A stretch of DNA of 64,000 nucleotides from an uncultured Ignavibacteria bacterium (GCA_964588305.1 CAZPOP010000004.1:26470-90469); one strand, 5' to 3'. Counted from the first letter of the stretch, positions 15,511 through 54,162 are shown. The notes: generated by a model from the letters alone, not told the origin. Translations and numbers: made by a program.

Positions 15511-15516
15511 GTTAAA

Positions 15517-16188
15517 TCACAAGAGTTGGCTTTCTGCCAACTGCTCTCTGGCTTTGTGGAATTCTTTGGAATCCGGATATTGGTCGAGCAGGCGCTCGAA
15601 AGCTTGTTTTGCTTTCTCCTTTTGGTTGGCTTTCAGGTAGGCTCGCCCTGCAGAAAGGAGATACTGCGGAGCGAGTAAACCATCAGGTTTGGCGGAGACC
15701 GCCTTGAGGAAATTATCTCCTGCCGCCTCGAATGTCCCGCTCTGCATATCACATTCTGCAATTCCAGCTTGAGCTGAGGCTAGGGAGAGCGGGTCCTCCG
15801 AATACTCTTCCACAAACCTTTGAAAGGTGGCTTTGGCGGTGGCGTAATCCTTGGCGTAGAAGTAGGCAGTAGCTAGGTAAAAGGTTGCCGGCCCGCCGCT
15901 TTTGGTCCCGCCGTATTTCTCCGTCACCGTATGCAAGTCGGTTATCGCTTGACTGGCATTACCTGCCTGGAATTCCATGGTAGCTTTCCCGAAAAGATCA
16001 GCTGCCTTTTGCTCTCTCCTCGTCCGTGAGGAGAAAACAAAGAAAACCACGACGGCCACCAGCACCACCGCGCCAGCGACCATCAGCACCTGATTCAGGT
16101 GCTTTTGGAGCCATTCTGATAATTTGAATGCTGTGGTAACCAGCTTGTCTTCCTTCATGTCTTTTTTGGTTATCCTTCTGGGACTCAT
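15517..16188 (-). CDS. Membrane-anchored tetratricopeptide-repeat protein (YfgM-like architecture)
   Basis: One N-terminal TM helix followed by TPR-like helical repeats. Confidence 0.65.
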   Translation of the reverse strand: MSPRRITKKDMKEDKLVTTAFKLSEWLQKHLNQVLMVAGAVVLVAVVVFFVFSSRTRREQKAADLFGKATMEFQAGNASQAITDLHTVTEKYGGTKSGGPATFYLATAYFYAKDYATAKATFQRFVEEYSEDPLSLASAQAGIAECDMQSGTFEAAGDNFLKAVSAKPDGLLAPQYLLSAGRAYLKANQKEKAKQAFERLLDQYPDSKEFHKAREQLAESQLL

Positions 16189-16387
16189 CGCAGATTTCTC
16201 CTAATGATAAGTTTTCGAAAAAAGCGTCGTCTGAAAACGGGCGCGTCTTCGAGGTTTGATTTGAGAATAGAATCTTCTAGCATAGCTGATCGTAATCACA
16301 TTTAGAAAGAAGAATTGCTTAACCCGAGTTCCCTTATGCAAACAGTCCGTTCTGTAGGACATCATCAGTGTGTGTGCGGCTCGGCAC

Positions 16388-16436
16388 AAAAAAAGCGAAG
16401 CCCTCTCCCTTGTTGCGGAAGACTTCGCTTTTTTTC
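16388..16436 (-). terminator. Candidate bidirectional intrinsic terminator downstream of the OMP gene
   Basis: A-run, stem GCGAAG...CTTCGC, then T-run. Lies 16 nt past the stop at 16452. Confidence 0.5.
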
Positions 16437-16451
16437 TCAAAACCACATGCC

Positions 16452-18008
16452 CTAGAAAAATCCGGTGAAACTCACGATTACCCGACTGTAGTCGTAAGTT
16501 TTCTTGCTGGAAAATGTTTCTTCATACCACGATTCGGAAAATACCTTGTTTGCACGATCAAGAATCTTAAAGCTGGTAGAGACTATCCTTTCTACATCGT
16601 CATATCGGGCATGTTCATAAGTGACATCAAACCTTATCTGGCTCCAGCCTATACCTGTTCCGAAAGCAAGCACACTGCCATCCACCCACGATCCTTTCTC
16701 GACTCCGTAATTAGACTGTATATGGGTAGGCATATAGCTAGGCTCTCCACCAATGTAAGTCAGGTCCGTGCGAATGAAGACCTCACTTGAGTCAACTTGG
16801 GTTTTGAAAAGCTTGGGATCGTTTCTATAACCGGCTCTCAAAGGAATGCTTCCGAATTTGGTGTCTATGGTGTATTCACCCCCAACTCGAAACTGAGTTA
16901 CGTTCCTCCAGCCCAAGCTTGTGGTTACTTTTTCCGCAACGGGATTGGCCAGGTCTTCCCGATAGGTCAGCTCGGCCTTGGAGTAGTTTCTGAATTCCAC
17001 ATCTGCTGCAAGGGTCAGAGATTTTATCTGATACGAGGTGCCGAAGCCAATCATGCTGGGCATCTTCCATTCCCTGTCAGTCTTAAAAAGGGGTGATATG
17101 GAACGAGAGGTCGGCTCATTGACTATTCCGTATTCGATGTAATCAGCAAGAAGCTGGACGTCGTTATCCTCTTTCAAGGTGAAGGGGGTTTTAACAACGC
17201 CTGCCAGACAAAGTTTGTTTATCGAGTACATTGCCCCTATGGTGAAATTGAATCCGGAATAGTCGCTTTCGATGGTAGGATGAAACCTGAATCCGCTGCG
17301 CCCGAACGGATTGACTTCATCATCACCAACCGGCAAGAAGAAATCCACATCACTGGTGAAGTTTCCATTATAAATATTGACCCCGGCTCCCAGGGAAAGA
17401 GACCTAACCCCTATCCCTAAGGAGGCGACGATTTGATCCAATCTACCTGTGACGTTTTCATCTATCGGGGGAAGCAAATAATTCTGGACCGTATCGTAGT
17501 CCACCGCCGTAAGGTATTTGTTCTCCTGATAGACGTCCGCCAATCTCTGATAAAGCACACTTCCGACGACTTCTTTCTCTCCGAGCTTAAACGGGATGAC
17601 AACGCTGGCAAATGAAAGAGCGTTGAGATCATGCTCTAGCTCCACACTGGAGCTGTAGTCCCAAGTCTCCGAAATGGCCGCGGAGGTGTAATCTGTCCGG
17701 TGCTTGGTAGAGCTGAAGGTGAGGTTCATCTGAGATTTGTCCATGTGGGAAAGTCCGGCGGGATTCCACGAGGCGGCAGAGGGGTCATCAGAGACTGCAA
17801 AAAACGCACCTCCCATCCCCCTGGCCTTGGCTCCGCCACCCACAAAATTGTAGTCTGTCAGCTGCAAAGGTGAAAGAAAGAAATCCTGTACGGTAAAATA
17901 CCCAATGGTATCCACCTCCACCTCCCGCCCGAATTTCTGCCCCCCTGAGGCTGAGACAGAAACAAGCAATGAAACCGCTATGATCAGACCCGAAAGCTTT
18001 GACGTCAT
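16452..18008 (-). CDS. Outer-membrane beta-barrel protein (FadL/PorV-like N-terminal motif)
   Basis: Signal peptide, ARGMGGAFFAVSDDPSAASWNPAGL motif, alternating beta-strand pattern, C-terminal ...SFTGFF. TAG stop. Confidence 0.7.
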   Translation of the reverse strand: MTSKLSGLIIAVSLLVSVSASGGQKFGREVEVDTIGYFTVQDFFLSPLQLTDYNFVGGGAKARGMGGAFFAVSDDPSAASWNPAGLSHMDKSQMNLTFSSTKHRTDYTSAAISETWDYSSSVELEHDLNALSFASVVIPFKLGEKEVVGSVLYQRLADVYQENKYLTAVDYDTVQNYLLPPIDENVTGRLDQIVASLGIGVRSLSLGAGVNIYNGNFTSDVDFFLPVGDDEVNPFGRSGFRFHPTIESDYSGFNFTIGAMYSINKLCLAGVVKTPFTLKEDNDVQLLADYIEYGIVNEPTSRSISPLFKTDREWKMPSMIGFGTSYQIKSLTLAADVEFRNYSKAELTYREDLANPVAEKVTTSLGWRNVTQFRVGGEYTIDTKFGSIPLRAGYRNDPKLFKTQVDSSEVFIRTDLTYIGGEPSYMPTHIQSNYGVEKGSWVDGSVLAFGTGIGWSQIRFDVTYEHARYDDVERIVSTSFKILDRANKVFSESWYEETFSSKKTYDYSRVIVSFTGFF

Positions 18009-22217: not shown

Positions 22218-23021
22218 TCAGTGCAGGCTTATCCTCGTGGGGAAAGAGTAGATATTCATCTTGCTCCCGCGAGCGAAGCCGACCAGAGTAATTCCCAGCT
22301 TCTGGGCGTTTTTGATCGCTAAGCTGGTGGGAGCGGATCGAGACACGATTATGTTGACTCCGGATCTGGATGCTTTGGCCAGTATGTCAGAGGAGATTCT
22401 GCCACTCAAAAGAAGTACTTTGTCCGCACAGCTTTCCTCCTCTTGAAAGCATTTGCCGAACACCTTGTCCACGGCGTTGTGTCGACCGATATCTTCAAAA
22501 TAGATTATAATCCTCTCTTTGTTTGCTAAGCTGGCCGCATGGACTCCTCCGGTCTTGCGAAAAAGAACTGATCTTTTCTCGAATTCGGTCATCAGTTGTT
22601 GGATCTCCGGAGAGGCTACGGTGGTCTGAAGATCAATCAATATGTCTTTGGCCGGATCAATATCATCAGTGCTTGAAAAGGTTGCTCCTTTTGCACAGCC
22701 GGAGGTCAAGGTTTTAGGCTGCGAAAAGCTGGATGGAAGCCGCCTTTTGGATTTGGTTTGTATTTTGATCTCGCTTTTTCCCGGATCGAAACTGATCGCC
22801 CGGATGTCCTTTTTGTTTTGGATGAACCCTTCAGAAAAAAGAAAACCTACGGCCAGGTGTTCCTGATCTTGCGGAGTACAGAGAAGGGTTATTACCTCTT
22901 TGTCATTTAGAAAAATCGCAAGCGGTGCCTCGGTGGCAACCAGATCCTCGCTCTCCTCCTTTTTGCCCGAGGTGACCTTGATGATCTTTAACCGATCGAT
23001 CCTTTCGTCTTTCTCATTCAT
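22218..23021 (-). CDS. fdhD: Formate dehydrogenase accessory sulfurtransferase FdhD
   Basis: GGVHAAS and GRHNAVDK motifs. 267 aa. Confidence 0.9.
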   Translation of the reverse strand: MNEKDERIDRLKIIKVTSGKKEESEDLVATEAPLAIFLNDKEVITLLCTPQDQEHLAVGFLFSEGFIQNKKDIRAISFDPGKSEIKIQTKSKRRLPSSFSQPKTLTSGCAKGATFSSTDDIDPAKDILIDLQTTVASPEIQQLMTEFEKRSVLFRKTGGVHAASLANKERIIIYFEDIGRHNAVDKVFGKCFQEEESCADKVLLLSGRISSDILAKASRSGVNIIVSRSAPTSLAIKNAQKLGITLVGFARGSKMNIYSFPTRISLH

Positions 23022-23640
23022 TTTCTTCGGCCATTCCGATCCTTAGGCTCTCAGCTCTTTTCAGGTCCGCCTCGGTGTTGATATTGAAAAAGCTCAGATG
23101 CTGTGGGTCCACCCGGTCAATCTCATTTGCCCCAATTTTCTTCACATACAATTCTCCCAGGACCTCGCGCATTCTCAGATTTTGCGTTTGCAGATGTTCA
23201 AACATCACCGGGATGCAATCTTTGGAATATACGGCAAATAAGGGTTCGACCTCTCCGTTGACTTCTGGGATCACCACATCGAACCTATCCCTTTCCTGCA
23301 GGAGCAATCTAATCAAAGCAGGTTTGATAAATGGCATGTCACAAGCCACCACAAAACTACACCTGGATGAAGAAAAACATAATCCGGTGAAGATTCCCCC
23401 CAAAGGACCGCTCTCCTTTATCAAATCCTCCACCACTTGAACACCGAACTTCAGGTAGGCTTGCTTTTGATCGGTGACGATGATGATTTCCGAAAAGATC
23501 TTCTGCAAAACACTCAGGGTGTTCTGAAGTATGCTCTCTCCCGTGGGAAGTTGAATGAAAGCTTTATTTCTGGCAATTCTGCTATTCTTTCCCCCGGCAA
23601 GGATTATACCGCTTGCTTCTATCATGTCTTCGGAGTTCAC
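23014..23640 (-). CDS. mobA: Molybdenum cofactor guanylyltransferase MobA
   Basis: GIILAGGKNSRI N-terminal motif. About 208 aa. Overlaps fdhD by 8 nt. Confidence 0.85.
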   Translation of the reverse strand: MNSEDMIEASGIILAGGKNSRIARNKAFIQLPTGESILQNTLSVLQKIFSEIIIVTDQKQAYLKFGVQVVEDLIKESGPLGGIFTGLCFSSSRCSFVVACDMPFIKPALIRLLLQERDRFDVVIPEVNGEVEPLFAVYSKDCIPVMFEHLQTQNLRMREVLGELYVKKIGANEIDRVDPQHLSFFNINTEADLKRAESLRIGMAEENE

Positions 23641-23709
23641 GTTCCTTTAATGAATTATGCGGAGGAGTGCTGGTCTTAATGCTGAACCGCTTATCTCCTT
23701 TGATCTCTA

Positions 23710-24204
23710 TTATTCTACGAAATGATGTTCCACGAATTCAATTAGGGAATCAATTTGGCTAGGCAGAAAGTAAGGAACCGCAGAAGAAGGGTCGACGTCC
23801 CCTACCACTGCGACTAAATTATCTTCTGTAGAGCAGAGCAATCCCGAATGTTTCTTGGAGTCGAACACCTCAATCTTGGGGAAGACGGAGTTCTTGAAAC
23901 CTTCCCCAATCACCAGATCACAGTCAGCAAATGCGAAATCCAGAAGCTGTTCAAACTTCCTGCTTCTTAAAGTGCGGGAAAAGAGCGCGATTTTAGTGGG
24001 CGAAAGGATGAGGGTAGATTCTGCTCCGGCTTGAGCATGTCTGAAGGAGTCCTTTCCGGGAGTATCGAATTCATGATCCTGCGTGGTGTACTTCATGCTC
24101 CCAATTCTGTGGCCTTTGCTCTTCAGGCCGGTGATCAGATTCTCAATCAGAGTGGTCTTTCCAACCTTCTTTTTGCCCACGATCAACAGGATTTTCATGC
24201 TCAA
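23710..24204 (-). CDS. mobB: Molybdopterin-guanine dinucleotide biosynthesis adaptor MobB
   Basis: P-loop GKKKVGKTT, then HEFDTPGKDSFRH. Confidence 0.85.
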   Translation of the reverse strand: MSMKILLIVGKKKVGKTTLIENLITGLKSKGHRIGSMKYTTQDHEFDTPGKDSFRHAQAGAESTLILSPTKIALFSRTLRSRKFEQLLDFAFADCDLVIGEGFKNSVFPKIEVFDSKKHSGLLCSTEDNLVAVVGDVDPSSAVPYFLPSQIDSLIEFVEHHFVE

Positions 24205-24283
24205 AGAGATAGTTTTTGGTCTTGATATATTCGAGCCTTTTCAGCCCTATTTCCACATCAGCCCGTCCCATAATCCTGATCTC

Positions 24284-24457
24284 TTACTGGGATAGCTTGA
24301 TTTCAATCCGATTGGGTTTCTCTTCAAGCTTAAGGGATGAGATCATCGTCCAGATAGTATTTCCTAATAGGTGAGTGGCAAAGGGATTGAGACAGACATC
24401 TTTTCCATTCACCTTGACCTCTATGGATCGGGCTTCTTCCTTTTCATAGCTTGCCAT
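24284..24457 (-). CDS. Hypothetical 57-aa protein at the head of mobB-mobA-fdhD
   Basis: ORF MASYEKEEARSIEVKVNGKDV... with GGAG 9 nt upstream. No family recognised. Confidence 0.35.
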   Translation of the reverse strand: MASYEKEEARSIEVKVNGKDVCLNPFATHLLGNTIWTMISSLKLEEKPNRIEIKLSQ

Positions 24458-24477
24458 CTTACGCACTCCCGCAAATC

Positions 24478-24513
24478 AAAAGAGGGGGAGGTGAAGTTCC
24501 TCCCCCTCTTTTT
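24478..24513 (-). terminator. Intrinsic terminator (bidirectional form) ending the fdh transcription unit
   Basis: Perfect 11-bp stem AGAGGGGGAGG/CCTCCCCCTCT with a 7-nt loop, flanked by A- and T-runs. Lies 32 nt past the stop at 24545. Confidence 0.65.
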
Positions 24514-24544
24514 AGGTTATAATTCGGGTCTTGGGTCAGAGAGA

Positions 24545-25192
24545 TCAGAACCGATACGCGAAGACTCCCAACACCCAGAAACCTAATGAGAGCAAAAGGA
24601 GTCCCCTGCCGTATGCTCTTTCCCCGATCTCCTGCCACCTGGTGAATGCTGGCGCTATCTTTCTTCCCAGATTGACTCCAGCTATGATGCCCAAGAAGCT
24701 CAGAAGCGCGGCGAAGCTCCCTTGGGTGAAAACCCAACTGAAGAGTCCGGAAAGACCTCTTTCGGCCCAGTAGGGATTGGCGAATATATAAGCTTGAGAA
24801 AGCGAAAAGACCGTATAGTTCACATAGCTTCCCACAAATCCCACCAGTCCCAGATGAACGGGGCGAGACATCCACTCTTTCTTCTCCGCCAGAGAGAAGG
24901 CCAAATCAAATATGGCGGCCTGCGCCACCACTGCAAATATCTGGCAGTAAAAAATCTGGGACAGGCCCAGCAGTTTGATCCCTGCCGCTATCACCCCGAT
25001 GGCCAGGGTGGAACCAGGTTTCCGAATAACCATTCTGCCGGCCGCCAAAATCAATATTCCGACGAAAGCTAGGATGGGAGAACTGGAATGCAAGCCGACC
25101 TTTCGCATGATATCGATCCCCAAGGCTTCCAGACCTCCCCAGATAGACCCAAAGAGTATGATGCCCAAAATCAACTTCTTCTTCTGTGTCAT
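24545..25192 (-). CDS. Unknown polytopic membrane protein (about 6 TM, 215 aa)
   Basis: Hydrophobic throughout. Only two His, so it is unlikely to be a dihaem cytochrome b. Start lies 16 nt after the porin stop. Confidence 0.5.
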   Translation of the reverse strand: MTQKKKLILGIILFGSIWGGLEALGIDIMRKVGLHSSSPILAFVGILILAAGRMVIRKPGSTLAIGVIAAGIKLLGLSQIFYCQIFAVVAQAAIFDLAFSLAEKKEWMSRPVHLGLVGFVGSYVNYTVFSLSQAYIFANPYWAERGLSGLFSWVFTQGSFAALLSFLGIIAGVNLGRKIAPAFTRWQEIGERAYGRGLLLLSLGFWVLGVFAYRF

Positions 25193-25207
25193 GTGCTACT
25201 CCTCCTC

Positions 25208-26368
25208 TTAAAAGGTGATCTGCACCTGAGCTTGCACGACATCGTTGTCGACCTCTCTTTCTTCTTTGACCCACTCGTAGGTCTCTTCGTCAAACACGTT
25301 CTTGTATCCCGGCTCCATTTTGTGGATAAAGTTCAAGTAGAACATGGCATTGATTCCCTCGAGGTAGTAATTCAGGCCTGCGGTTATCCAGGCTTCCTCG
25401 TCATCATCGCATACTTCGCAGATGTCATTTGAGAACGCAGCTGTCCCATAGCCCATGTCGAAGGTAGCCTCCTCATAACTTGCATCAGTGTCGGGATCGT
25501 GAAAATCGTACCGGGCCAAGAATTCCACCTTTGGGTGCGGTTGAACTCCGACGTGAGCGAAAAAGGCCTGACCATCGACGCTGCTGACGGTGTCGATGTG
25601 GCTGGGAGCATATTCGGTGGAAGCCATAAGGAATTCACCTCTAAACTTCAGGGTGAGGTCATCGGTAGCCTTATAATCTACCAGGGCAAACCCGCCGAAA
25701 CGTTTCATCTCCAGTGTCTCTTCGTCGGGGTTTGACACGCCAGTTGGAGGGGCAGCACTGCCGATCCAGGCGTAACCGCCGGCCCTTATTGTGGCCTGAT
25801 CCAGCGGAGGCTTGAACTCTGCGCGCGCCAGGAAGTCCTTAGCATCGTTGTTGTCCGCGAAGTTATTTGCCGGGTATCCGTTGAAGATTCCCAGGTTGAA
25901 ATCCAGATAGTCCGTTTTGGTCGTGCTCTGGATTCCCACCTGTCGCCACACGGCAAATCTCAGCGTGGTTAGAGGATAGTTTATCATCTCCAACTTCGCA
26001 GTTGAATATGGCATATAGATGGTGAAGTTGGGCAAGAACCTACCGAAGGCGATTTCGGTCTGGGGAATATAGAAAAACTGCGCCTTATAGTCCAATACGC
26101 TTATGCTTCCTCTATGATCAAGCTGGACGAAATACTTGACCTTGTCGGGGACAATGACTCCCCAGAAGAGGAAACGGGCCCGGTTCAGAGTGAAGGAGTC
26201 AAAGCCTGCCTCATCCTCCACATTGTAGATGAAGCCCGCCTGAAGTATGCCTCCCACCTTCAAGGTACCTTTACCGACCTTGATCTCAGCCATCTCTGAG
26301 ATGGCTGAGCTTGAGAGTAACAAAGAAAACAGGATACCCACGATGGCTAAAAAGGTGAGTTTTTTCAT
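25208..26368 (-). CDS. Outer-membrane beta-barrel porin (possibly OprO/P-like anion porin)
   Basis: Signal peptide, alternating beta-strand pattern, C-terminal ...QVQITF. Start lies 6 nt after the fdnH stop. Confidence 0.65.
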   Translation of the reverse strand: MKKLTFLAIVGILFSLLLSSSAISEMAEIKVGKGTLKVGGILQAGFIYNVEDEAGFDSFTLNRARFLFWGVIVPDKVKYFVQLDHRGSISVLDYKAQFFYIPQTEIAFGRFLPNFTIYMPYSTAKLEMINYPLTTLRFAVWRQVGIQSTTKTDYLDFNLGIFNGYPANNFADNNDAKDFLARAEFKPPLDQATIRAGGYAWIGSAAPPTGVSNPDEETLEMKRFGGFALVDYKATDDLTLKFRGEFLMASTEYAPSHIDTVSSVDGQAFFAHVGVQPHPKVEFLARYDFHDPDTDASYEEATFDMGYGTAAFSNDICEVCDDDEEAWITAGLNYYLEGINAMFYLNFIHKMEPGYKNVFDEETYEWVKEEREVDNDVVQAQVQITF

Positions 26369-26373
26369 TTAGT

Positions 26374-27192
26374 CTATCCCTCCTCCGTTTTTGTAACCAG
26401 ATCATCCTTTTTGTCTTTAACTTCTTTCACTTTCCCTAAAACGATTCCCACCAGAGCGGCAGTCAGGGTTAAAGTGCCGAAAGGCTTCAAAAGGTCGTGG
26501 AACAAGCCCAGATCCTCGGATACCTGGGGATCTTTGGGAAGGTCTGGATAGAGGTCCAGAGGTTCCGGAAGGACAAATATCTTCTTGGTTCCGGTTCCCA
26601 ATTCCTTCTCGCCGTAAATCACCGGCTGTCTTCCCTTTTTGGTCAGCCTTTCCACAGCCTTGTAGGCCATTTGTACAATCTTGTCCCGATCTCCAAAGAC
26701 CAGGCAATCGGTGGGACATGCCTTGGCACAGGCCGGCTCTAAGCCGTTTCCCGTTCGGTCGAAGCAGAAGGTACACTTGGTGGATTTTTCCGCTTGGGTG
26801 TCGATCACGGGAATGGTGAAAGGACAGTATTCCCGGCATGCTCCGCAGCCAATGCATAGCTCGCGGTTAACGTATACGGCTCCGGTCTTTTTGTCGTGGG
26901 TCATGGCCTTCACCGGAGTCACCGGGCAAGCCTTGACGCAAGCCGGATCGACGCACTGCATGCAGCGGTGCACCCGGAAGAGCCATTTTAGCTTATCCTT
27001 CTCCTCCTTCTCGTGAAACTTGACCAAGGTGTAGGTGGAGGGGGAGAGCCCAATGGGGTTCTGATATCCTCCGGCCGCCGCGAAAAAGGTGGTCTTCTCT
27101 GCGGGAAGTTCGTTCCACTGCTTGCAGGCCACCTGACAAGCCCGGCAGGCTATGCATTTTTCCATATCCAATAGCAATGCTTTTTCTGCCAT
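26374..27192 (-). CDS. fdnH: Formate dehydrogenase iron-sulfur subunit (FdnH/DmsB family) with a C-terminal TM anchor
   Basis: Four Cys clusters (CIACRACQVAC, CMQCVDPACVKACP, CIGCGACREYCP, CTFC...CAKACP) and the hydrophobic tail LTLTAALVGIVLG. ATG 27192 sits immediately after the fdnG stop. Confidence 0.85.
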   Translation of the reverse strand: MAEKALLLDMEKCIACRACQVACKQWNELPAEKTTFFAAAGGYQNPIGLSPSTYTLVKFHEKEEKDKLKWLFRVHRCMQCVDPACVKACPVTPVKAMTHDKKTGAVYVNRELCIGCGACREYCPFTIPVIDTQAEKSTKCTFCFDRTGNGLEPACAKACPTDCLVFGDRDKIVQMAYKAVERLTKKGRQPVIYGEKELGTGTKKIFVLPEPLDLYPDLPKDPQVSEDLGLFHDLLKPFGTLTLTAALVGIVLGKVKEVKDKKDDLVTKTEEG

Positions 27193-27193
27193 C

Positions 27194-30169
27194 TTATCCC
27201 ACCTCCTTTGCAACGTCGCAGAGGAACGCCTTATATTCAGGAATGTTGGTGTTGGCATCCCCCACGTGGGGAGTCAAACGGTTAGCACTATCTCCCTTTG
27301 CTAATCCCTTAAATCCGAAATGCCAGGGAAGACCGATCTGTTCATAGGCCTTTCCATTCAGCTTGAATGGCTTGAAACGCCTGGTCACCACCGCGTAAGC
27401 AACTATGTGTCCTCGCGCGGTCGATATCCGCACCTTATCCCCGTTCTTAACGCCCTTGGATTTGCCCAAAGATTCGCTCATCTCCACGAACATATCAGGC
27501 ATGAGCTCAACCAGCCAAGGATTGTTTCTGGTCATCTGGCCTGCCTGCCAGTGCTCGGTGACCCGATAAGTGGTAGCGATAATGGGGTATTTGTCAGGCG
27601 AGCCAACCGCGTCCATTTCCCCCGCCCAGATCTTAATGGTAGGATTGCTCTGCTGAGAGGACATGGCATTCTTCACCGGCGCTTCGAGGGGCTCGTAGTG
27701 CTCCGGGAAGGGACCATCTGCAAGACCGAAGCCAAAAAGGCGAGCGTGTCCCTCCGGCTTCATGATGAATGAGTATTTCTCTCCCGGAGGCCATCCTCCG
27801 TCTGGGACGTCTCCGGCCCATTTGGTCTCGGGACCGGTCCACTTAACCACCCACTTATTGGGAGCATAAGGATTGCCCTGAAGGTCGCAGGAAGCTCGAT
27901 TATAGATTATCCTGCGATTCACCGGCCAACACCAAGCCCATCCGGGATATAGCCCAATCTTGTTGGGAGCATCCTCCAGGCCCCGACGGGCTGCCATATT
28001 TCCATCTTCGGTGTAGCTAGCACAATAGAGCCAGTTGCCTGACGAGGTGGTGCCATCGTCCATGAGTTTGGCAAAGGAGGCAGCCAATTTGCCGGTTGTG
28101 AGATGATAACCATTGATATCTTTGGCTACCAGGTGTACGTCAGGCTCTTCTCCCTCACCATAATTCCAATTTAGATTCACGATAGGATCAGGGAACGCGC
28201 CACCCTCGCCTGCATACAGCTTTTTCAGTTCTTTGGCTATTCGATTCAGGATCCACAAGTCGGACTTGGCATTGCCCGGAGGATGGACCGCCGCGTATCT
28301 CCACTGCATCCAACGACCGCTGTTAGTAATGCTCCCCTCCTTCTCCATTGACGCGGCCGCCGGGAGCATAAAGACCTCTGTCTTTATGTTCTTGGGATCC
28401 ACTGCGGGATCAGCCCAGAAACCAGCAGTCTCAGTCTCCCAGAGGTCTGCTGCGATCAGCCAATCCAACCTTTCCAGCGCCTTTCTCTCCTTCAAGACGT
28501 TGGGTCCCGCCACCGCCGGATTCTGACCCATACAGATCAGCCCCTTGATCACTCCATCATACATGGCTTCGAACAAGGCTATGTGATCACAATTAGCACT
28601 CACCTTGGGAAGATACTGATAGCAGAATTCGTTATCCTTCTGAGCCTTGTCTCCCCAGAAAGCCTTCAACAGGCTAACCATGTACTTGGGAGTGTGCTGC
28701 CACCAATTAGCGCTCTTGGGATCATTCGACTTGGGCGTCCAGTGCTCCAAATACTGAGCCAAGGTTTGGTCCTTAACCCGAGGAGTCTTGAGATAGCCGG
28801 GAATGATGTGGAATAGGAGAGCGTAATCAGTGGAACCTTGCACGTTCGATTCGCCACGTAGGGCATTGATTCCTCCGCCAGCCACTCCCACGTTTCCCAA
28901 CAGCAGCTGAAGCATGGCGTAGGTGCGCACGTTCTGAGTACCCACAGTATGCTGAGTGGTCCCCATAGCGTACATGATAGTGCCTGATTTTTCCTTGGCA
29001 CCGGTCGCTCCGTAGGTCTTCGCCACCTCCACCATCAGCTCCGAAGGACATCCAGTAATGCTGGACACCTTCTCGGGGGTGTAACGGGAGAGGTGCTTCT
29101 TGAGAAGCTGAAACACGCACCGCGGGTCCTGCAGGGTCGGATCCTTTTTCGGATTTCCATCCGCATCCAGCTGGTAGATCCAGGTTTCTTTCCTATACAT
29201 TCTTTTGGCTTGATCGTAACCGGTGAAAAGCCCGTCATCGAATCCGAAACCCTCATCCACCATGAAGCTAGCGTTGGTGTGATCCACCAGGTAGTCCTTA
29301 TTGTAAAGATTGTTCTGGATGATGTAGTTCATCAGCCCATCGACGAATGCGATATCGGATCCCGATCTTATGGGTGCGTAGATGTCTGCTCTGGCCGAGG
29401 TGCGAGTGAAACGGGGATCGACGCTGATCAGCTTCGCCCCGTTATCCATAGCTTTGCTCACCCAACGGAAAGAAATGGGATGATTCTCTGCCGCATTGGA
29501 ACCGATGATCATGATGCAGTCAGCATTCTTGATGTCAATCCAGTGATTGGTCATGGCCCCTCTGCCGTAAGTCTCCGCCAAACTGGCGACTGTGGCAGAG
29601 TGTCATATGCGTGCCTGATGTTCCAAGTAAACGATGCCCAGGGCCCGAGCCAGCTTGGACCAGAGGTAGCACTCCTCATTGTCCAACGCGGCTCCGCCCA
29701 AACCTGCCAAGGCCTCGACCCGGTTCACCACGCGTCCCTGATCATCCGCTGCCGCCCAGCCTTCATCCCTGGTCTTCTTTATTCTCTTGGCCATCTCCGG
29801 TATGGCCCAATCCCAGCTTTTCTCCTCCCATTTGTCACTGTAGGGAGCTCTATAGAGAACCTTGGTCATCCGCCTTTCATTATTGGCTATCTGAATCAAG
29901 GCCTCTCCCTTACTGCAGAGCGATCCCTGATTTATGGGATGGTCCGGATCGCCTTCAATGTTTATCACTTTTCCATTGCTGACCGAAACGATCTGTGAGC
30001 ATCCCACTCCGCAATAAGGGCAAATGGTGGTGCTCTCCTTGGCATACTGGGTCTTAAGGTTCTGCGCATATGCTTCAGAAGTTCGCAAGTGAACCCCCAG
30101 ACCGCCTAAGATCGCCCCGCCCGTGACCCCTCCGGAGACTTTTAGAAAACCTCTTCTCGAGATTTTCAT
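27194..30169 (-). CDS. fdnG: Periplasmic formate dehydrogenase catalytic subunit (FdnG-type molybdopterin enzyme), selenocysteine at codon 189
   Basis: ORFs 29603..30169 and 27194..29581 are in one frame, joined by TGA 29603-29605. The junction ...LEHQARI-U-HSATVASLAETYGRGAMTNHW matches the FdnG Sec site (QARVUHGPTVA...FGRGAMTNHW). Twin-arginine signal SRRGFLK. N-terminal Cys cluster CPYCGVGC. Confidence 0.92.
29560..29600 (-). promoter_or_regulatory. SECIS-type hairpin following the fdnG UGA
   Basis: Lower stem CUCUGCC/GGCAGAG (nt 3-9 / 37-43 after UGA). Upper stem CGCC/GGCG (nt 15-18 / 24-27). Apical loop AGUUU. Confidence 0.6.
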
Positions 30170-30202
30170 ATGCTTCGTTCACCTCCTTCTTGAAGTTTGT
30201 GT

Positions 30203-30721
30203 TTATTTGTTCTCTTTCTTCTCTTCTTCTTTTTTCATCAATTCGACATCCGGTTCATATATCTCGTTAAGCATAAACATGGATCTGTTTATTTTTTCGA
30301 TTTCCTCCTCTGAAATTCCTGACTTCTCCTTTTTGGCCATCCTCTCTATGATTGCGTTCATCTCAGCTTGGTCTTTGGTCTGGTGAGCCTTGACCACTAC
30401 GGCCAGAGAATGGCATTTTCCGCACTTCTCCTGGAATAGGTTCTTGTGAGGTTCTTCCACGGGAAGCAAGGTAAAGGTTGCCTCTATCTCCTTTAGAGAT
30501 TGTTCGCTTATGTTTATCCCTGCCTTGTCGTGCATTTCCTTCATGATTTTCTCCATCCCCGTCCTCACGTCCTGCAGGGTATGGCAGATCGAGCATCTCT
30601 GCTCGAAGGCGGTCGGCTCTGACTTCTTGGGAGCCACCTGCTGTGTCGTCTGAGCAAACACCCAGACCAATGCAGCAGTCGACATCAGCAGAATACCACC
30701 ACAGATCCTGACTGCTTTCAT
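30203..30721 (-). CDS. Dihaem c-type cytochrome (172 aa, signal/anchor helix)
   Basis: Two CXXCH motifs (CSICH, CGKCH), each in a similar repeated module. N-terminal hydrophobic helix, Lys/Glu-rich tail. Confidence 0.72.
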   Translation of the reverse strand: MKAVRICGGILLMSTAALVWVFAQTTQQVAPKKSEPTAFEQRCSICHTLQDVRTGMEKIMKEMHDKAGINISEQSLKEIEATFTLLPVEEPHKNLFQEKCGKCHSLAVVVKAHQTKDQAEMNAIIERMAKKEKSGISEEEIEKINRSMFMLNEIYEPDVELMKKEEEKKENK

Positions 30722-30820
30722 AGCGTTTCACCTCCTCAACGTTTTTGTGTTACCGTACGTGTTCAGAGTTATGCCACTTTGTGATTCTTTTCACATGGGC
30801 GCTCAAAGGGACCCTTGCTC

Positions 30821-31678
30821 CTATGAGACGATGATCGAGCCCGAAATCTGGGTCTTGAGATAGTTGGGGTTTTGGTATCCGTCCTTTTGGGCCAGGATGT
30901 CCAAATAAAGAGTGTTTATGTTCTCTTTGGAAAAATCTGGAGTCTCGTTTTCGGGCATCTTTCTTTCGTCGATCGTCTTAATGTACTTCTTGCATTTGTC
31001 GCATACATCTACCCTGAAGGGCCCCTTATCCGAGGATGAATCTCCCTCGGTGAAGAAGTATCTCAAAGTGTTGTGATCTTCATTGCCACAGAAGGGACAC
31101 ATTATTCTCTTGTAGTGCCACTGAGTGCCACAGAGACTGCACCACAGAATCCTTTTACCGTCCTCTCTTCTCAGTTTTTCCATCGCCGGCAAACTTCCAC
31201 AAAGAGGGCAATTCCCCTTAAGCCAACTTTCACGGTCGATTTTGTCCTGAAATTTCTCAGCGAAAACCTCAAAGAACGTCTGCACCAGATTCAGCCCCAA
31301 AAACAAAAGCAGATCCGGGTTCAAATTGAGCTGATTAGCAAGAGATTTAATCTCCTGTGGATCTCCGATCAGAACCGACCTGGTGAGCCTGGTGATATCC
31401 ATCTTTTCTCTCTTCTGCATTAGATCCTGGATTTCCGAAGGAGTGAAGGCCTGGTATTTTTCCAGAATGGGACACAGGATTCCGAGAAGCTCTTCTGAGA
31501 GTTTTCCATCAAGTTCTATCTTCTCTCTGGCGAGCAGGGGCCGCCCTTCTTTTGCTCGTTTTTGAATGCTTTCATGATCAACAACTATTGTCTCCCGGTG
31601 GACGCTTCTGAAATTATCTTTAGCGCCATTCAGCTCAGCAAGGAATTCGGAATGTTGTTTAGTACCTTCTTGTGTCAT
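30821..31678 (-). CDS. fdhE: Formate dehydrogenase accessory protein FdhE
   Basis: Four CXXC pairs (CPLCGS, CSLCGT, CPFCGN, CDKCKKY) in FdhE spacing. 285 aa. TAG stop. Confidence 0.85.
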   Translation of the reverse strand: MTQEGTKQHSEFLAELNGAKDNFRSVHRETIVVDHESIQKRAKEGRPLLAREKIELDGKLSEELLGILCPILEKYQAFTPSEIQDLMQKREKMDITRLTRSVLIGDPQEIKSLANQLNLNPDLLLFLGLNLVQTFFEVFAEKFQDKIDRESWLKGNCPLCGSLPAMEKLRREDGKRILWCSLCGTQWHYKRIMCPFCGNEDHNTLRYFFTEGDSSSDKGPFRVDVCDKCKKYIKTIDERKMPENETPDFSKENINTLYLDILAQKDGYQNPNYLKTQISGSIIVS

Positions 31679-31765
31679 TTTTCCTCTTGGAATTTGATTT
31701 TAACTGACGACTCCTGGTGCTAGAAACCCAGTCAAAAAGCAAAACTAACCCAACGAATTTTCAGG

Positions 31766-31794
31766 AATATAAAATCTACCCTGGTATTTGTCAA
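31766..31794 (-). promoter_or_regulatory. Sigma70-like promoter candidate for the fdh operon (TTGACA-N17-TATATT)
   Basis: Reverse complement reads TTGACAaataccagggtagatttTATATT, about 90 nt upstream of the fdhE ATG. Confidence 0.45.
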
Positions 31795-32002
31795 CAAAAA
31801 AATACTCAAATCTTACTAAGGTCGGGTGAGGGGTACCGGACGACGAGCGTATTCTCCATAAGCGCTTATAAGACAGCAGGTTACTTGAGGCCATTGGTTG
31901 TCTGTTCACAGCCCTTTTGAGAGTTCCTCAGCCCCTTGCAGACTGGTCTTGGTGATGATTTTGGAGCAAAAGTTCTTTCTACCAGACATTGTTATTATAA
32001 GC

Positions 32003-32037
32003 AAAAACCGGACAGATTTTCGATCCGTCCGGTTTTT
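32003..32037 (-). terminator. Intrinsic terminator after the MtrB-like gene
   Basis: AAAAACCGGAC...GTCCGGTTTTT stem with flanking A/T runs, 29 nt past the TAA at 32066. Confidence 0.65.
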
Positions 32038-32065
32038 GGGTTATTCGTTTTTTCGACCTGTAAGC

Positions 32066-34246
32066 TTAGAAACCAATTCTCACGCCGCTTCGAATCACAA
32101 ACAAAAAGCCGGTCTCGATGCCGTAGACATATCCCTTGTCATCGGTCAAATCATAGTATGCTGCATCTGCGGTCAGCGAGATTCTTGGAGAAAGTGCATA
32201 CTCTGCTCCCGCGGAGATGTTGAACTGGGTATAGGCCAGATCAGAGTATTGGTTGATCGAGCTGAAATCGTAATCGGCTGCGGCAATATCGTCCGTCACC
32301 TCCTGTGGGACCTTGGTCATTCTACCCATGGTCAAAGTGCCTTTACTGTCGATGTAGTTTCCGTCCAGAGTGAGGCTTATCTTTTCGTTAGCCAGAAACA
32401 GAATGCCGGCGGAGAATGAAAGTGCTTCGTTTTGGTATTCGGTCTCAGCGAAAAAGGAACCATAATGCTTGGGATCGCCACTACCTGTGGCGGCAAGATG
32501 ACCCCCTCACCCATCCATCATGGCCACTGCGGCCAGCCCGTTTGATTTGTGATAAACATAGGCCACGCTGCCGAAGACATTCGACTTCAGAGTCGGGGCG
32601 AAACTGACCAAAACCTGAGGGTGCAACTGGGTGCGCTCGAAATCCAGACTGTCTGTGTCACCGTTTGTTCCCAAGCTGGCCTTTAAGGTCGCGGAGAGGG
32701 AGATCTTATGGTCGGGCTTGAAGTTCAGATCAAGCTCAACCCCATGCAAGTTCGTTGGCTGATTGGTTATGCTGCCATAGCGTAACGTATCTCGCTGGAA
32801 ATAATACCACCAATTGTTGTCAGGCAGCTTTTCCAAAACATCCTGGCCAGCTCTCTCAAATAGCTGCTCATATGGCGAAAAAGGGTCATCGGTGTTTTCG
32901 AAGAAATACTTGAGGCGTCCGGAATATCTCAGGTTGGGCCGGTATTTTCCCCCGGCTGAAAACCGAAGCTTGGTTGTTTTTCCTTCAGCCCCATAGTAAG
33001 GATAGTCATCCCTTTTCGTCCCTTCGTAACCAGCGGACAAAAAGACCCTGTATTTTCTGCTGGGCTGATAGATGAGCTCGGCAGAACCTTTTGCCACTGT
33101 CCGGGTGAGATTGGAATAACGGGTCCAATCAAAATCCTGACCGCCCCCGGTCAATCCGTCACGCCATAACGGTAGGTCTACGGGTACCTCATCACTCTCG
33201 ACCCGGGAGAGCGAAGCCAAAGCAATCATCTTGGTTTTCAGGTTCGGTCGGAATACATACTTGAAAATGCCACCATTGCTGTTTGCTTCGATTCCGGCAG
33301 AGACATTCTTGGCCTGAGAGTGAGTGAAACTTCCCGAAATCTCGCTTTTTTCCCCGAGATCAGCCTTCACCTTGGCGGTATGAGACATCTTCTGGGTTTC
33401 AGGAGTGGTGCCGAATTCGACCACCTCACCATTGAAGACGGTCCGGGTACCGAACTCATCCAGCAGAGTGCCATTCACGGGGTGCTGGGCGGTGTCGTAA
33501 AACGCCTCCGGGCCAGGCACCTCCGATTTGAAAGTGCGGAAGCTTCCCACATAGGAGAAAAACAGAGGCCCCGGGTCGATTTCAATCCCAGCAGATGCCG
33601 TGTGCGTGCGGCGATCAACCTTCACGGACTTGGAGATCATATGGCAGGAGGAACAGTGCATGGAGATCACCTTCTGCTCATCTCCCTTCTCCAAGATGGA
33701 ACGATGTGCGGCGATGATTTTCAGCATGACAGAGCCCGGGATTTTAACCTGGAAGTCCGATTTTATCTCGTACCGGGTATAGCCGAAATTGGCGTCCGGC
33801 ACCTCGTGCTCGTAGGTGAACATTTTTCCACCAGGTTTGTTCTGCTGATCCACTGCCTCACGAGCCATCAGATTCTCCAGAAGGTCCGTCGCGCGGTGTC
33901 GGTAAAAAGAGCGGTAGGAAACCAGACCAGAAAAACCGTCTTTTGATTTTCCCGCCAGGTCAAAAGAGATTCTCTTGGGATCATAATAATGGCCAAGGAA
34001 ATCCAGGCTTTGATCTTTTCGGTATCCGGAAAAGCTGAGAGATATCTCTGGAACCGCTTCCTCTTTTCCCCGGTCGAACTCTCCGACTTTTTTTGAGAAA
34101 TCCTGGTAGCCGGTATAGTGACTCCCCAGCCAGAGACTCCAAACAGAATGAGCGGCCTCCTCTTCAGAAAAAGCAAGTAAGGAAAAAATCGGCAAAACCA
34201 AACCTAGTGATAAAATGAAAAGGGATCTTAAGAACGATGTTTTCAT
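32066..34246 (-). CDS. MtrB/PioB-like giant outer-membrane beta-barrel, 726 codons with one in-frame TGA (32507-32509)
   Basis: Signal peptide and AAGGAG RBS. ORFs 32507..34246 and 32066..32335 plus the stretch between them form a single frame. Ends ...SGVRIGF. Lies 10 nt downstream of the decahaem cytochrome gene. Contains CSSCH. Confidence 0.7.
32468..32497 (-). promoter_or_regulatory. SECIS-like hairpin downstream of the in-frame UGA of the barrel gene (hypothetical function)
   Basis: CUUG-C-CGCCAC-[AGGUA]-GUGGCG-AUCC-CAAG. The upper stem begins at nt 15 after UGA, as in fdnG. Confidence 0.35.
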
Positions 34247-34256
34247 ATTTCTCTCC

Positions 34257-35216
34257 TTATCTTGTTAATGCTCTTCCTCCACCCGAAATGGACTGGGACG
34301 GCAGATCACTTCCGTGAATCTCCGAGTGACACTGAGTGCATTTGGTCAACATCGCCCTCTTCATGCCGTCGCGAGTGGAGATGCCCTCTCGCTCGGGATG
34401 CATTGGAGCATTGAACTCTCCCTCATACCCCACCAGAGTAACATGGAAGTGCATGGGATGACAGGATAAGCAGAGAAAAGGCTCATTCTGCAAAAGCATC
34501 TTGTCGGCGACGGTTCCGTGTGGATCATGACAGATTCCGCAGTCCTCGTTAACCGGTTGGTGCTCGAAGATGAATGGGCCCTGCAGCGAGGCATGACAGG
34601 ACAAGCAGAGTTCACGACCGTCGTCCCCTACCGCATACTTGACCTCTCCCGAATGAATGGGGTGACAGTCCGAACAGCTCACTAAGCCTTCCATAACCGG
34701 ATGATGGGAGGGCATTCGGGCCTGGGCACGTTTGTCTGCGTGACAGTCAAAACAGAGTGAGGGCTCCTGCTTTGTTAAAAGATGTTTACCCTCGGAATGA
34801 ATCCTGTGACAATCGCCACAGCCTTCTGCTGTCTCGAAATGAGTCGATCCGTGCCAGGAGGCGAAAGCCGGGCCCTTGTGGCAATTGGTGCACAGATTGG
34901 TTCCCGTGGCGGTATAATCTTTAGGCGGATTATAAATCAGCGTGGGATCTCCTTCTTCGGCATGCGCCGAGCCCGGCCCATGACAAGCCTCACAGGTGTT
35001 TTCATCCCCCACCGATAATCTGGCATGAATGTTTTTTTCAAATTTCTCAGAGACTTCCTCATGGCATGCTGAACAGAGCTCATCACCCACTTCCACCGCA
35101 TCAGGAGGCAAACCACCCGTTACGTATGCCGCTGGAAGAAGAAGCAGGCAGAAAACAAAAACCAACAGTGGGCCGGTTGAGTTCTTGGCTGTAAGGTATT
35201 TGAGAGACCTAAACAT
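34257..35216 (-). CDS. Periplasmic decahaem c-type cytochrome, MtrA/DmsE/PioA/MtoA family
   Basis: 319 aa with a signal peptide and ten CXXCH motifs: CSACH, CEACH, CTNCH, CGDCH, CFDCH, CSDCH, CLSCH, CGICH, CLSCH, CTQCH. Confidence 0.88.
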   Translation of the reverse strand: MFRSLKYLTAKNSTGPLLVFVFCLLLLPAAYVTGGLPPDAVEVGDELCSACHEEVSEKFEKNIHARLSVGDENTCEACHGPGSAHAEEGDPTLIYNPPKDYTATGTNLCTNCHKGPAFASWHGSTHFETAEGCGDCHRIHSEGKHLLTKQEPSLCFDCHADKRAQARMPSHHPVMEGLVSCSDCHPIHSGEVKYAVGDDGRELCLSCHASLQGPFIFEHQPVNEDCGICHDPHGTVADKMLLQNEPFLCLSCHPMHFHVTLVGYEGEFNAPMHPEREGISTRDGMKRAMLTKCTQCHSEIHGSDLPSQSISGGGRALTR

Positions 35217-35355: not shown

Positions 35356-35384
35356 AATTTAAGGAACCTCATAATCGGTGTCAA
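35356..35384 (-). promoter_or_regulatory. Sigma70-like promoter candidate for the cytochrome-barrel operon (TTGACA-N17-TAAATT)
   Basis: Reverse complement reads TTGACAccgattatgaggttcctTAAATT, about 140 nt upstream of the ATG at 35216. Confidence 0.35.
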
Positions 35385-39464: not shown

Positions 39465-40028
39465 TCAGAATCCATCGTTTTTATCTGTGAAGTCGATGAT
39501 TGGATATTGGGCAAAAATGCTTCCCATATACTCCTCACCGAATTTTCTCAAATAGTAATTATAACTCGAGAATTCGTAATCCTCGCATTTCTTCCCATAA
39601 CCGTGTTTCACTGGATTATGATGTATATAGTTGAATCTTTTGTAAAATGTCTGTTCATTCCTTATGCAATTATCCCAGTAATTCCACCAGACTTGTCTTC
39701 CCCTTTTACTCTCAGAAAAATTGAGGTCGAAAGAACTACCACCATGCACAAAACCGACAAACTCTCCCAGATTTTCTTCTTCTTTGAACTGAAAAAGAAA
39801 ATGATAGTGATTGGACAAAATCACCCAGGCAAAAATTCTAACCTTATACCGGATTGCACCAGATTTCAATTTGCTTTTTATGATTTCCTTTTTAGCCGGG
39901 GTATTAAAGAAATTTTCCTTGTTTAATGTGGATGCCGTTACGAAATATATTTTGTCATCCAAATACAAATGGAATGGTTTATGACGTTTGAATCTTGTAT
40001 CCTTCAGCATATTCGAATTTTTATTCAT
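39465..40028 (-). CDS. IS200/IS605-like Y1 (HUH) transposase of the REP-associated (RAYT) type
   Basis: 187 aa with the HUH motif NHYHFLF and catalytic-Tyr region YIHHNPVKHGY. Flanked on both sides by REP-like repeats. Confidence 0.75.
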   Translation of the reverse strand: MNKNSNMLKDTRFKRHKPFHLYLDDKIYFVTASTLNKENFFNTPAKKEIIKSKLKSGAIRYKVRIFAWVILSNHYHFLFQFKEEENLGEFVGFVHGGSSFDLNFSESKRGRQVWWNYWDNCIRNEQTFYKRFNYIHHNPVKHGYGKKCEDYEFSSYNYYLRKFGEEYMGSIFAQYPIIDFTDKNDGF

Positions 40029-53597: not shown

Positions 53598-54162
53598 TCT
53601 GGGCTCCTGTCACACAATTACGGACGTCGCCTCCGGCGCCATCTTCCGTGAAGCACTTGTGTTGTGGGGTAGGGTACCCCGCAACAACGGTTAAGAGCGT
53701 AGATCTTTTCGTGTCCTACGGATTCACATTCGGATATTTCGGCATATGCCTTGTACGGGCAAGCCTTCTCTGCCAGAGCCGCCCGCGTGGCGGACGGGCA
53801 GGAATGGACCTTCGGCGGAAGATTCACGCATTTCACTTCAGAAATCCAACGACTGCAGAATGCCACTGGTGGAACTGAAGTTCCACCAGTGCACTCTCTT
53901 CCAAAATATATGATTGCTGAAACTGTTTGTCAAACAATATGTTGAGGGCGGCATAGGTTATGAGTGCTTGGGGGAATTGGGAGTTGATTCTTGCAGGGAT
54001 TCCCGGCCAACAGAGAAACTCCGCTTTACGCGAGGATAATGGAACCACGAGACATTCTTACAACTAGTGACGCTTCCGTGGAGAATAGGAGAAGTGGGTT
54101 CCTGCAAACGGGAGGTATTTTCTTTGTATTCTAAGATTTTCTATCTATTGTCGAGCATAGAA

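Follow-up and report, generated by a model that had tools for sequence, protein, structure and literature searches.

A Zixibacteria formate dehydrogenase operon with a dihaem cytochrome c gene and no cytochrome b gene, next to a decahaem cytochrome–barrel gene pair

RESULTS

Gene content of the locus

We analysed a 64-kb stretch of DNA (the window; CAZPOP010000004.1:26470-90469 of assembly GCA_964588305.1, recorded as an uncultured Ignavibacteria bacterium) that carries an operon for a predicted periplasmic formate dehydrogenase (FDH) and, just upstream, a gene pair for a decahaem c-type cytochrome and a putative outer-membrane barrel (the conduit pair). The host lineage of the locus is Zixibacteria. 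The operon contains a gene for a dihaem cytochrome c and none for the dihaem cytochrome b, FdnI, and we consider it probable that it encodes a quinone-independent enzyme with the conduit pair as an optional neighbour. Identities were taken from Pfam and NCBIfam profile scans, and the cut-offs quoted are the family cut-offs of those databases. Coordinates are counted from the window's first letter. All genes of the locus lie on the minus strand; in the list, Sec is selenocysteine, Tat is twin-arginine translocation and ECF is energy-coupling factor.

35356–35384, minus strand: sigma-70-like promoter, TTGACA-N17-TAAATT after a T run, upstream of the decahaem cytochrome gene
34257–35216, minus strand: decahaem c-type cytochrome of the GSU2203 (OmcK) family, periplasmic, 319 aa (ten CxxCH motifs, NCBIfam)
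32066–34246, minus strand: CXXCH-containing selenoprotein of the GSU2204 family, putative MtrB/PioB-like outer-membrane barrel, 726 aa (NF041027)
about 32003–32037, minus strand: intrinsic terminator at the end of the conduit operon, a hairpin of −23.8 kcal/mol (z = −6.5) with a U run behind it
31766–31794, minus strand: promoter of the fdh operon, TTGACA-N17-TATATT after a T run (motif score, conservation)
30821–31678, minus strand: fdhE, formate dehydrogenase accessory protein (Pfam FdhE_central and FdhE_C)
30203–30721, minus strand: dihaem cytochrome c, periplasmic, 172 aa (CSICH and CGKCH motifs, signal peptide)
27194–30169, minus strand: fdnG, Tat-exported catalytic subunit with a Sec TGA at 29603–29605 (TIGR01553, Tat motif)
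26374–27258, minus strand: fdnH, iron-sulfur subunit, predicted membrane helix at the C-terminus (Pfam, NCBIfam, PDB match, hydropathy)
25208–26368, minus strand: putative outer-membrane porin, 386 aa, distant relative of OprO/OprP (signal peptide, C-terminal ...QITF, homologues)
24545–25192, minus strand: TM215, 215-aa orphan multi-helix membrane protein with a fold like that of an ECF S component (predicted structure)
23710–24204, minus strand: mobB (Pfam MobB, E = 4e-37)
23014–23640, minus strand: mobA (Pfam NTP_transf_3, E = 3e-33)
22218–23021, minus strand: fdhD, sulfurtransferase (TIGR00129, 225 bits against a cut-off of 141)

The order fdhE, dihaem cytochrome c, fdnG with its Sec codon and fdnH with its membrane tail, as given in the original prediction, was borne out. 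Two details of that description are revised here. The maturation genes mobB, mobA and fdhD do not directly follow fdnH, because the 386-aa porin gene (26368–25208) and the 215-aa TM215 gene (25192–24545), which had not been listed and are both conserved, stand between them. The distance from the stop codon of the MtrB-like barrel gene to the start of fdhE is 387 nt rather than ~330 nt.

A hybrid formate dehydrogenase without a cytochrome b gene

The catalytic subunit FdnG scored 1417 bits against TIGR01553 (cut-off 814), as an alpha subunit of the FDH-N type does, and it carries a Tat motif (RRGFLK) and an in-frame TGA (29605–29603) with a hairpin downstream. The periplasmic FdhA proteins of Desulfovibrio were its strongest PDB matches (1h0h_A, 1183 bits; 6sdr_A, 1165 bits), outscoring E. 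coli FdnG (1kqf_A, 993 bits) and placing the subunit with the Desulfovibrio periplasmic clade. For the beta subunit the ranking was reversed: FdnH matched E. coli FdnH best (1kqf_B, 195 bits, residues 20–286, i.e. 267 residues with the C-terminal helix included), with the short Desulfovibrio FdhB at 140 bits. Hydropathy over 19 residues peaks at 1.77 for FdnH residues 256–274. The beta subunit and the cytochrome thus depart from the Desulfovibrio type, the former through its C-terminal helix and the latter in having two CxxCH motifs and no c3 domain. Judged from these matches, the enzyme would be a hybrid of a Desulfovibrio-like alpha subunit and an E. coli FdnH-like beta subunit.

Two observations concern the gene models. 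Read from its first ATG, fdnH shares 65 nt with the end of fdnG (27194–27258), and an alternative ATG lies at 27192, one base past the fdnG stop codon. In one related locus (L014, 10538–12418, in the complete chromosome CP070839.1) the FdnG match ends at residue 627 and is followed by unrelated genes, reflecting either a disrupted gene or an assembly problem.

To place the operon among its relatives, we scanned genomes with the dihaem cytochrome, keeping one genome per species, and compared the resulting 23 Zixibacteria loci by tblastn with the window proteins and by clustering of open reading frames (ORFs). The genes for fdhE, the dihaem cytochrome, fdnG and fdnH occur in that order in all 23, and the dihaem cytochrome gene also lies between fdhE and fdnG in every further metagenome locus long enough to show it. 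No FdnI-type cytochrome b gene was found in the operon, in the window (Pfam on essentially all ORFs of at least 150 aa) or in the 23 related loci. The earlier statements that such a gene is absent and that a cytochrome c stands in its place are therefore both supported for operon and window. The only other membrane protein of the operon is TM215, and it has no conserved histidine. Its size would suit a disguised FdnI; this identity was ruled out by the lack of a conserved histidine in 36 sequences and by a predicted fold most like that of an ECF S component.

The dihaem cytochrome c

The dihaem protein starts with a signal peptide, which is followed by two class-I-like domains related by duplication; a CxxCH motif and an invariant methionine are present in both. 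The two halves align with each other as an internal duplication (E = 7e-6) in which M63 is matched by M128, and across 60 sequences the invariant residues are C43, C46, H47, M63, H64, C100, C103, H104 and M128. The family numbers 148 members and is essentially confined to Zixibacteria, each named member coming from a Zixibacteria-type bin. The N-terminus is conserved as ...FVWAFA-QT and resembles a cleaved signal peptide, suggesting a protein that is probably soluble in the periplasm.

By sequence, the second half resembles the C-terminal domain of Chlorobium cytochrome c-z (E = 0.0035), and the NCBIfam SorB profile matches the protein under its cut-off (E = 1.4e-6). The AlphaFold model is of moderate confidence, with a mean predicted local distance difference test score (pLDDT) of 75 and a predicted template-modelling score of 0.48. 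Its top structural match was 3a9f, cytochrome c-z (probability 1.0, root-mean-square deviation 2.0 Å over 58 columns), and the next was SorB (2blf_B, probability 0.72). Because cytochrome c-z and SorB are His/Met class-I-type cytochromes, both haems of the dihaem protein are probably also His/Met-ligated.

The porin and TM215

Downstream of fdnH, the porin and TM215 occur together in about ten loci and TM215 alone in three more, while L004 and L024 have neither. Retention of the porin gene within the operon was counted in 9 loci, and of 14 operons 12 have TM215 behind fdnH or the porin. The porin itself has no Pfam match, but PF07396 is present in many of its homologues (55–89% identity), one of which bears the name OprO/OprP porin. 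In L020 (6163–7383) a non-homologous outer-membrane protein occupies the porin slot.

TM215 represents an orphan family that is restricted to Zixibacteria and has no Pfam domain, its match to ABC_cobalt (19.8 bits) lying under the cut-off of 25.2. Its structural model (pLDDT 84.7) had 5edl as the top PDB match, with a probability of 0.99, a template-modelling score of about 0.5 and E = 0.097. No ECF A or T genes were found near TM215. Going by these resemblances, the porin and TM215 may have uptake functions, either for formate or for oxyanions needed by the cofactor, such as molybdate or tungstate. Five other loci (L011 at 14484–16472, L016, L019, L020 and L021) have a gene for a TonB-dependent receptor (Plug and barrel domains) between mobB and mobA that is not present in the window and that may serve in metal or cofactor uptake.

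The conduit pair

The decahaem protein combines ten CxxCH motifs with above-cut-off scores for NF041028 (348 bits, cut-off 325) and for TIGR03508, the DmsE family (211 bits, cut-off 192), which makes it a member of the GSU2203 family. Its entire haem core (residues 44–308) matched chain A of PDB entry 6r2q with E = 1.5e-37; this entry is the Shewanella MtrCAB structure and chain A corresponds to MtrA (the file's chain label differs).

The barrel protein, which has a signal peptide, scored 524 bits against NF041027 (cut-off 350), and this family profile stops exactly at a TGA. When this in-frame TGA (32509–32507) is read through, the protein ends in ...VRIGF, and such a C-terminus together with the signal peptide is compatible with an outer-membrane barrel. 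The TGA context (...AMMDG-U-GG...) and a downstream hairpin of the GCCAC-AGGUA-GUGGC type are found in all seven Zixibacteria copies compared, with pairing kept despite base changes, and the haem motif HCSSCHM is invariant. The profile score, the CXXCH motif and the Sec codon with a hairpin like a selenocysteine insertion sequence together identify a member of the GSU2204 family. A sequencing error or pseudogene was ruled out as the origin of the TGA by its conservation with the hairpin in 7/7 copies and by the family being a known selenoprotein family; a 2026 review lists it as such and terms it an MtrB/PioB-family barrel (PMC13188914).

Against Pfam MtrB_PioB (PF11854) the barrel scored 19.4 bits, under the cut-off of 23, in a match that spans the TGA, and no PDB match to solved MtrB was obtained by profile. 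The label ‘MtrB-like’ is for these reasons reasonable but putative. For neither the barrel nor the porin did sequence or profile searches of the PDB return a solved relative. The window contains no MtrC-like gene, no gene for an extracellular multihaem protein and no further multihaem gene of any kind.

Conservation of the conduit pair next to the fdh operon

The original prediction had asked whether an MtrAB-like pair and this fdh operon co-occur as neighbours in related genomes. Enough upstream sequence to judge was available for 21 of the 23 species-level loci. A second, metagenome set was obtained by scanning from the barrel and gave nine informative loci, some of which duplicate genome loci.

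Pair immediately upstream of fdhE: L001, L002, L004, L008, L011 (5 loci)
Pair 6 kb upstream of fdhE, with serpin genes inserted: L005 (1 locus)
Pair absent from 5–9 kb of upstream sequence: L007, L010, L013, L014, L018, L019, L022, L024 (8 loci)
Pair not adjacent, 1.7–3 kb of upstream sequence: L003, L006, L012, L015, L016, L017, L021 (7 loci)
Metagenome set, fdh operon directly downstream of the pair: L025, L027, L028, L029, L035 (5 loci)
Metagenome set, fdh operon 4.6–6 kb downstream of the pair: L030, L034 (2 loci)
Metagenome set, pair without fdh downstream and with unrelated genes instead: L026, L033 (2 loci)

The neighbourhood does recur, with the pair no more than 6 kb from fdhE in 6/21 informative species-level loci, all of one clade; the other 15 do not show the adjacency in the upstream sequence available, and the pairs of L026 and L033 have no fdh operon downstream. 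In a neighbour-joining tree of FdhE, the dihaem cytochrome and the FdnG N-terminus, the adjacent loci all fell within this clade (clade A), interleaved with loci lacking the pair, and members of clade B never had it. In L005 (5241–7840), L030 and L034, where the units are 4.6–6 kb apart, the barrel gene and fdhE are separated by one serpin gene or two in the opposite orientation.

This distribution bears on the idea that the two units form one wire, in which electrons from FdnGH would reach the dihaem cytochrome, then the decahaem cytochrome and, by way of the GSU2204 barrel, acceptors outside the cell (Fe(III), Mn(IV), humics or partner cells), without any quinone. We regard this as possible but, on balance, unlikely. 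In its favour, the pair stands immediately upstream of fdhE in the window as well as in five species-level and five metagenome loci, with three more at 4.6–6 kb, and seven of the nine informative loci that were picked through the barrel have the fdh operon downstream. The junction between the barrel gene and fdhE also survives changes in the outer flank of the pair, which is surE in the window, L025, L027 and L029 and ComEC and TauE genes in others. Non-homologous extracellular pentahaem cytochromes occupy the same slot in L007 (5908–8157) and L013 (3088–5334), where they have FN3 domains and a type IX secretion system (T9SS) sorting tail, and L028 (274–2727) has a pentahaem cytochrome with cadherin-like repeats and a dockerin-like tail upstream of the decahaem–barrel pair itself. 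Finally, no small soluble cytochrome other than the dihaem protein is encoded close to the conduit. Proteins of L018 and L021 that had been candidates for the pentahaem family were excluded from it, their similarity being limited to the T9SS sorting tail.

Set against this are the restriction of the adjacency to 6/21 loci, its absence from clade B and the occurrence of the pair without fdh in L026 and L033. Moreover, functionally unrelated genes downstream of the operon (FadL-like, TPR and GH57) persist in all five clade-A loci with enough sequence. This flank is conserved at least as well as the adjacency, and synteny alone therefore proves little.

Two transcription units

The original prediction treated the conduit pair and the fdh operon as neighbours with their own terminator and promoter rather than as one transcript, and the comparison agrees. 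After the barrel gene, a hairpin of the type ACCGAACGG...CCGTTCGG-TTTTT is present in 11/11 adjacent loci, and in the same 11 loci the element TTTTT-c-TTGACAA-N16/17-TAaATT lies about 90–150 nt before fdhE. In the window, the fdh promoter (31794–31766) scored 11/12 and was the best promoter-like site of the region. Exact matches to TTGACA-N17-TAWATT occur three times in the 64 kb where 0.01 would be expected, namely before fdhE, before the decahaem cytochrome gene and at 53933–53905. The last of these sites (53905–53933, minus strand) is upstream of the gene for the exonuclease VII large subunit.

In clade-A loci where the conduit pair is absent or replaced, fdhE is preceded by the same promoter. 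The fdh operon is therefore an autonomous unit, and the separate, conserved promoter and terminator count against a direct wire from FdnGH to the barrel.

Potentials and the direction of electron flow

If the dihaem cytochrome is His/Met-ligated, as is probable, its potential matters for routes through the conduit. His/Met haems usually lie above MtrA-type bis-His haems in potential, and so electrons would not necessarily run downhill from the dihaem to the decahaem protein; transfer the other way, or to an oxidase or reductase, would be easier. In addition, a route that bypasses quinone would move no charge across the inner membrane and conserve no energy by itself, so that a chain from formate to the outside would serve electron disposal (e.g. 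of fermentative formate) rather than respiration. Both arguments weigh against the wire described above.

Alternatively, the conduit might work inwards, in the manner of MtoAB or PioAB. Electrons from Fe(II) or electrode oxidation and those from FdnGH would then be parallel inputs to a periplasmic c-type cytochrome pool drained by an inner-membrane terminal oxidase or reductase, and the adjacency would reflect a common periplasmic electron-transfer neighbourhood or plain inherited synteny. The mid to high potential expected of the dihaem cytochrome, the autonomy of the two units and the lack of an extracellular multihaem gene in the window are consistent with such an arrangement. Furthermore, Castelle et al. 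(2013; PMC3903129), noting that Zixibacteria RBG-1 lacked extracellular cytochromes, proposed on that ground that its MtrAB homologues might serve iron oxidation. However, the two families are named after proteins of a Geobacter iron reducer, GSU2203 (OmcK) and GSU2204, which both rise in Geobacter cultures with haematite or magnetite (PMC4070692), the relatives L007, L013 and L028 carry extracellular cytochromes beside the operon, and no terminal oxidase gene lies nearby. Parallel inputs of this kind appear improbable.

The original prediction also suggested that the system could run in reverse, with extracellular electrons entering through the conduit and driving CO2 reduction to formate at FdnG. 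Desulfovibrio FdhAB and other metal-dependent FDHs of the same clade can work in both directions in vitro (PMC13397495), and the alpha subunit is nearest to those Desulfovibrio enzymes. Nevertheless, the CO2/formate couple near −430 mV would be far below any His/Met cytochrome c, so that the final steps would run steeply uphill while the locus offers no site for coupling, and the presumed anion porin of the operon suits formate uptake at least as well as export. Given the probable ligation of the dihaem cytochrome, we judge the reverse reaction to be highly improbable.

Surrounding sequence

The remaining genes of the window are housekeeping genes (truB, pnp, leuS, surE, gpsA, plsY, der, dxs, recN and others). 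Among them, a gene for an IS200-like Y1 transposase (39465–40028, minus strand) lies ~4 kb upstream of the conduit pair. No riboswitch or other RNA element was found in the locus, the only Rfam matches being three tRNAs.

DISCUSSION

We interpret the locus as two independent units, the downstream one encoding a quinone-independent periplasmic formate dehydrogenase that uses a dihaem cytochrome c in place of cytochrome b, and the conduit being an optional neighbour; we give this reading a probability of roughly 0.6. In the proposed mechanism, formate would probably enter through the operon's own OprO/P-like anion porin and be oxidised in the periplasm by FdnG, the Tat-exported, Sec-containing subunit with a Mo or W bis-molybdopterin guanine dinucleotide cofactor. 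Electrons would cross the iron-sulfur clusters of FdnH, which would be tethered to the inner membrane by its single C-terminal helix, and pass to the dedicated soluble dihaem cytochrome c instead of to a dihaem cytochrome b and quinone. From the dihaem cytochrome, electrons would enter the pool of periplasmic c-type cytochromes and reach any sink available to the cell. The upstream OmcK/GSU2204-type unit would be one candidate sink or a parallel input, but no obligatory component of the enzyme. Which way electrons flow, how the haems are ligated, what the porin does and which partner the cytochrome has are all inferred.

The replacement of cytochrome b by cytochrome c appears well supported at the level of gene content because the four-gene core is present in 23/23 loci and no cytochrome b gene occurs in the operon or the window. 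Several points weigh against the interpretation. The membrane helix of FdnH normally packs against FdnI, and a membrane partner may be encoded outside the 64-kb window; alternatively, TM215, present in 12/14 operons, could be a cofactor-less anchor. Both FdnH (229 bits against the TIGR01582 cut-off of 335) and FdhE (E = 1e-20 with TIGR01562) fall under the NCBIfam equivalog thresholds. Lastly, the haem ligation and potentials of the dihaem cytochrome come from homology and from a structural model of moderate confidence.

Sediments and aquifers are home to widespread, uncultured Zixibacteria, and in these settings formate is one of the main carriers of electrons between species. Our interpretation would mean that the Fibrobacteres–Chlorobi–Bacteroidetes (FCB) lineage, too, evolved the cytochrome-c-linked FDH design of sulfate reducers, with another cytochrome in it. 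More tentatively, and in our view with the odds against it, the clade-A FdnGH, the dihaem cytochrome, the OmcK-like decahaem cytochrome and the haem- and Sec-bearing GSU2204 barrel could make up a complete quinone-independent chain from formate to the outside, extended by a pentahaem cytochrome in some members. If the conduit were indeed the sink, sediment formate turnover would be tied directly to metal reduction or cell-to-cell transfer with the quinone pool bypassed, and the locus would represent a dedicated formate-to-outside electron-disposal module, which has not been described in any organism. Bioelectrochemical formate/CO2 devices might also make use of the compact unit of alpha subunit, beta subunit and cytochrome c as a component.

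Several known systems can be compared with the two units. With MtrAB, MtoAB, PioAB and the Geobacter GSU2203/GSU2204 pair, the conduit unit shares a decahaem cytochrome that exceeds the GSU2203 and DmsE cut-offs and a partner that exceeds the GSU2204 cut-off and has both CXXCH and Sec. Unlike MtrAB-type conduits, its barrel has no detectable PDB match to MtrB and there is no MtrC-like gene in the window. In Zixibacteria RBG-1, the MtrAB homologues were reported to cluster with PetAB and other cytochromes and not with fdh (PMC3903129, 2013), and porin–cytochrome operons were reported from the Zixibacteria phylum with FeGenie (PMC7005843).

The E. coli FDH-N complex (FdnGHI, 1kqf) resembles the enzyme in its alpha subunit (993 bits), in providing the best PDB match to the beta subunit and in maturation by FdhE and FdhD. 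In contrast to FDH-N, the operon has no FdnI, and hence the locus has no evident quinone site or redox loop. The fold of the haem domains is shared with the sulfite:cytochrome c oxidoreductase SorAB (2blf_B) and with the C-terminal domain of Chlorobium cytochrome c-z, or PscC (3a9f), and SorAB also provides a precedent for a small cytochrome c as the dedicated acceptor of a periplasmic molybdoenzyme. Unlike those proteins, the cytochrome here has two tandem domains and a different enzyme partner, and the sequence similarity is marginal (E = 0.0035 to 0.13).

Periplasmic formate dehydrogenases linked to c-type cytochromes are well known in sulfate reducers. The Desulfovibrio (Nitratidesulfovibrio) enzymes FdhAB, FdhABC3 and FdhM have, like the enzyme described here, a Tat-exported Sec-containing catalytic subunit, represented by its best PDB matches 1h0h and 6sdr, and electrons that go to c-type cytochromes rather than to a cytochrome b and quinone, with the FdhABC3 operon including its own cytochrome c. 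FdhABC3 has a tetrahaem cytochrome as a subunit, and the FdhM cluster combines a membrane-associated alpha–beta enzyme with a multihaem cytochrome c and an unidentified membrane protein (PMC13397495). No prior description of a formate dehydrogenase with a dihaem cytochrome c, or of an fdh operon next to an Mtr-type conduit, was found in the literature searched, which left most subscription journals outside. Unlike the Desulfovibrio systems, the cytochrome here is a tandem class-I dihaem protein of PscC/SorB-like type, probably His/Met-ligated, rather than a tetrahaem c3; the beta subunit follows the FdnH type of E. coli in having a predicted membrane helix; the operon adds fdhE, an OprO/P-like porin and an ECF-S-like protein; and the lineage is Zixibacteria. 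The enzyme is a lineage-specific variant of the Desulfovibrio FdhABC3/FdhM theme that appears to be new.

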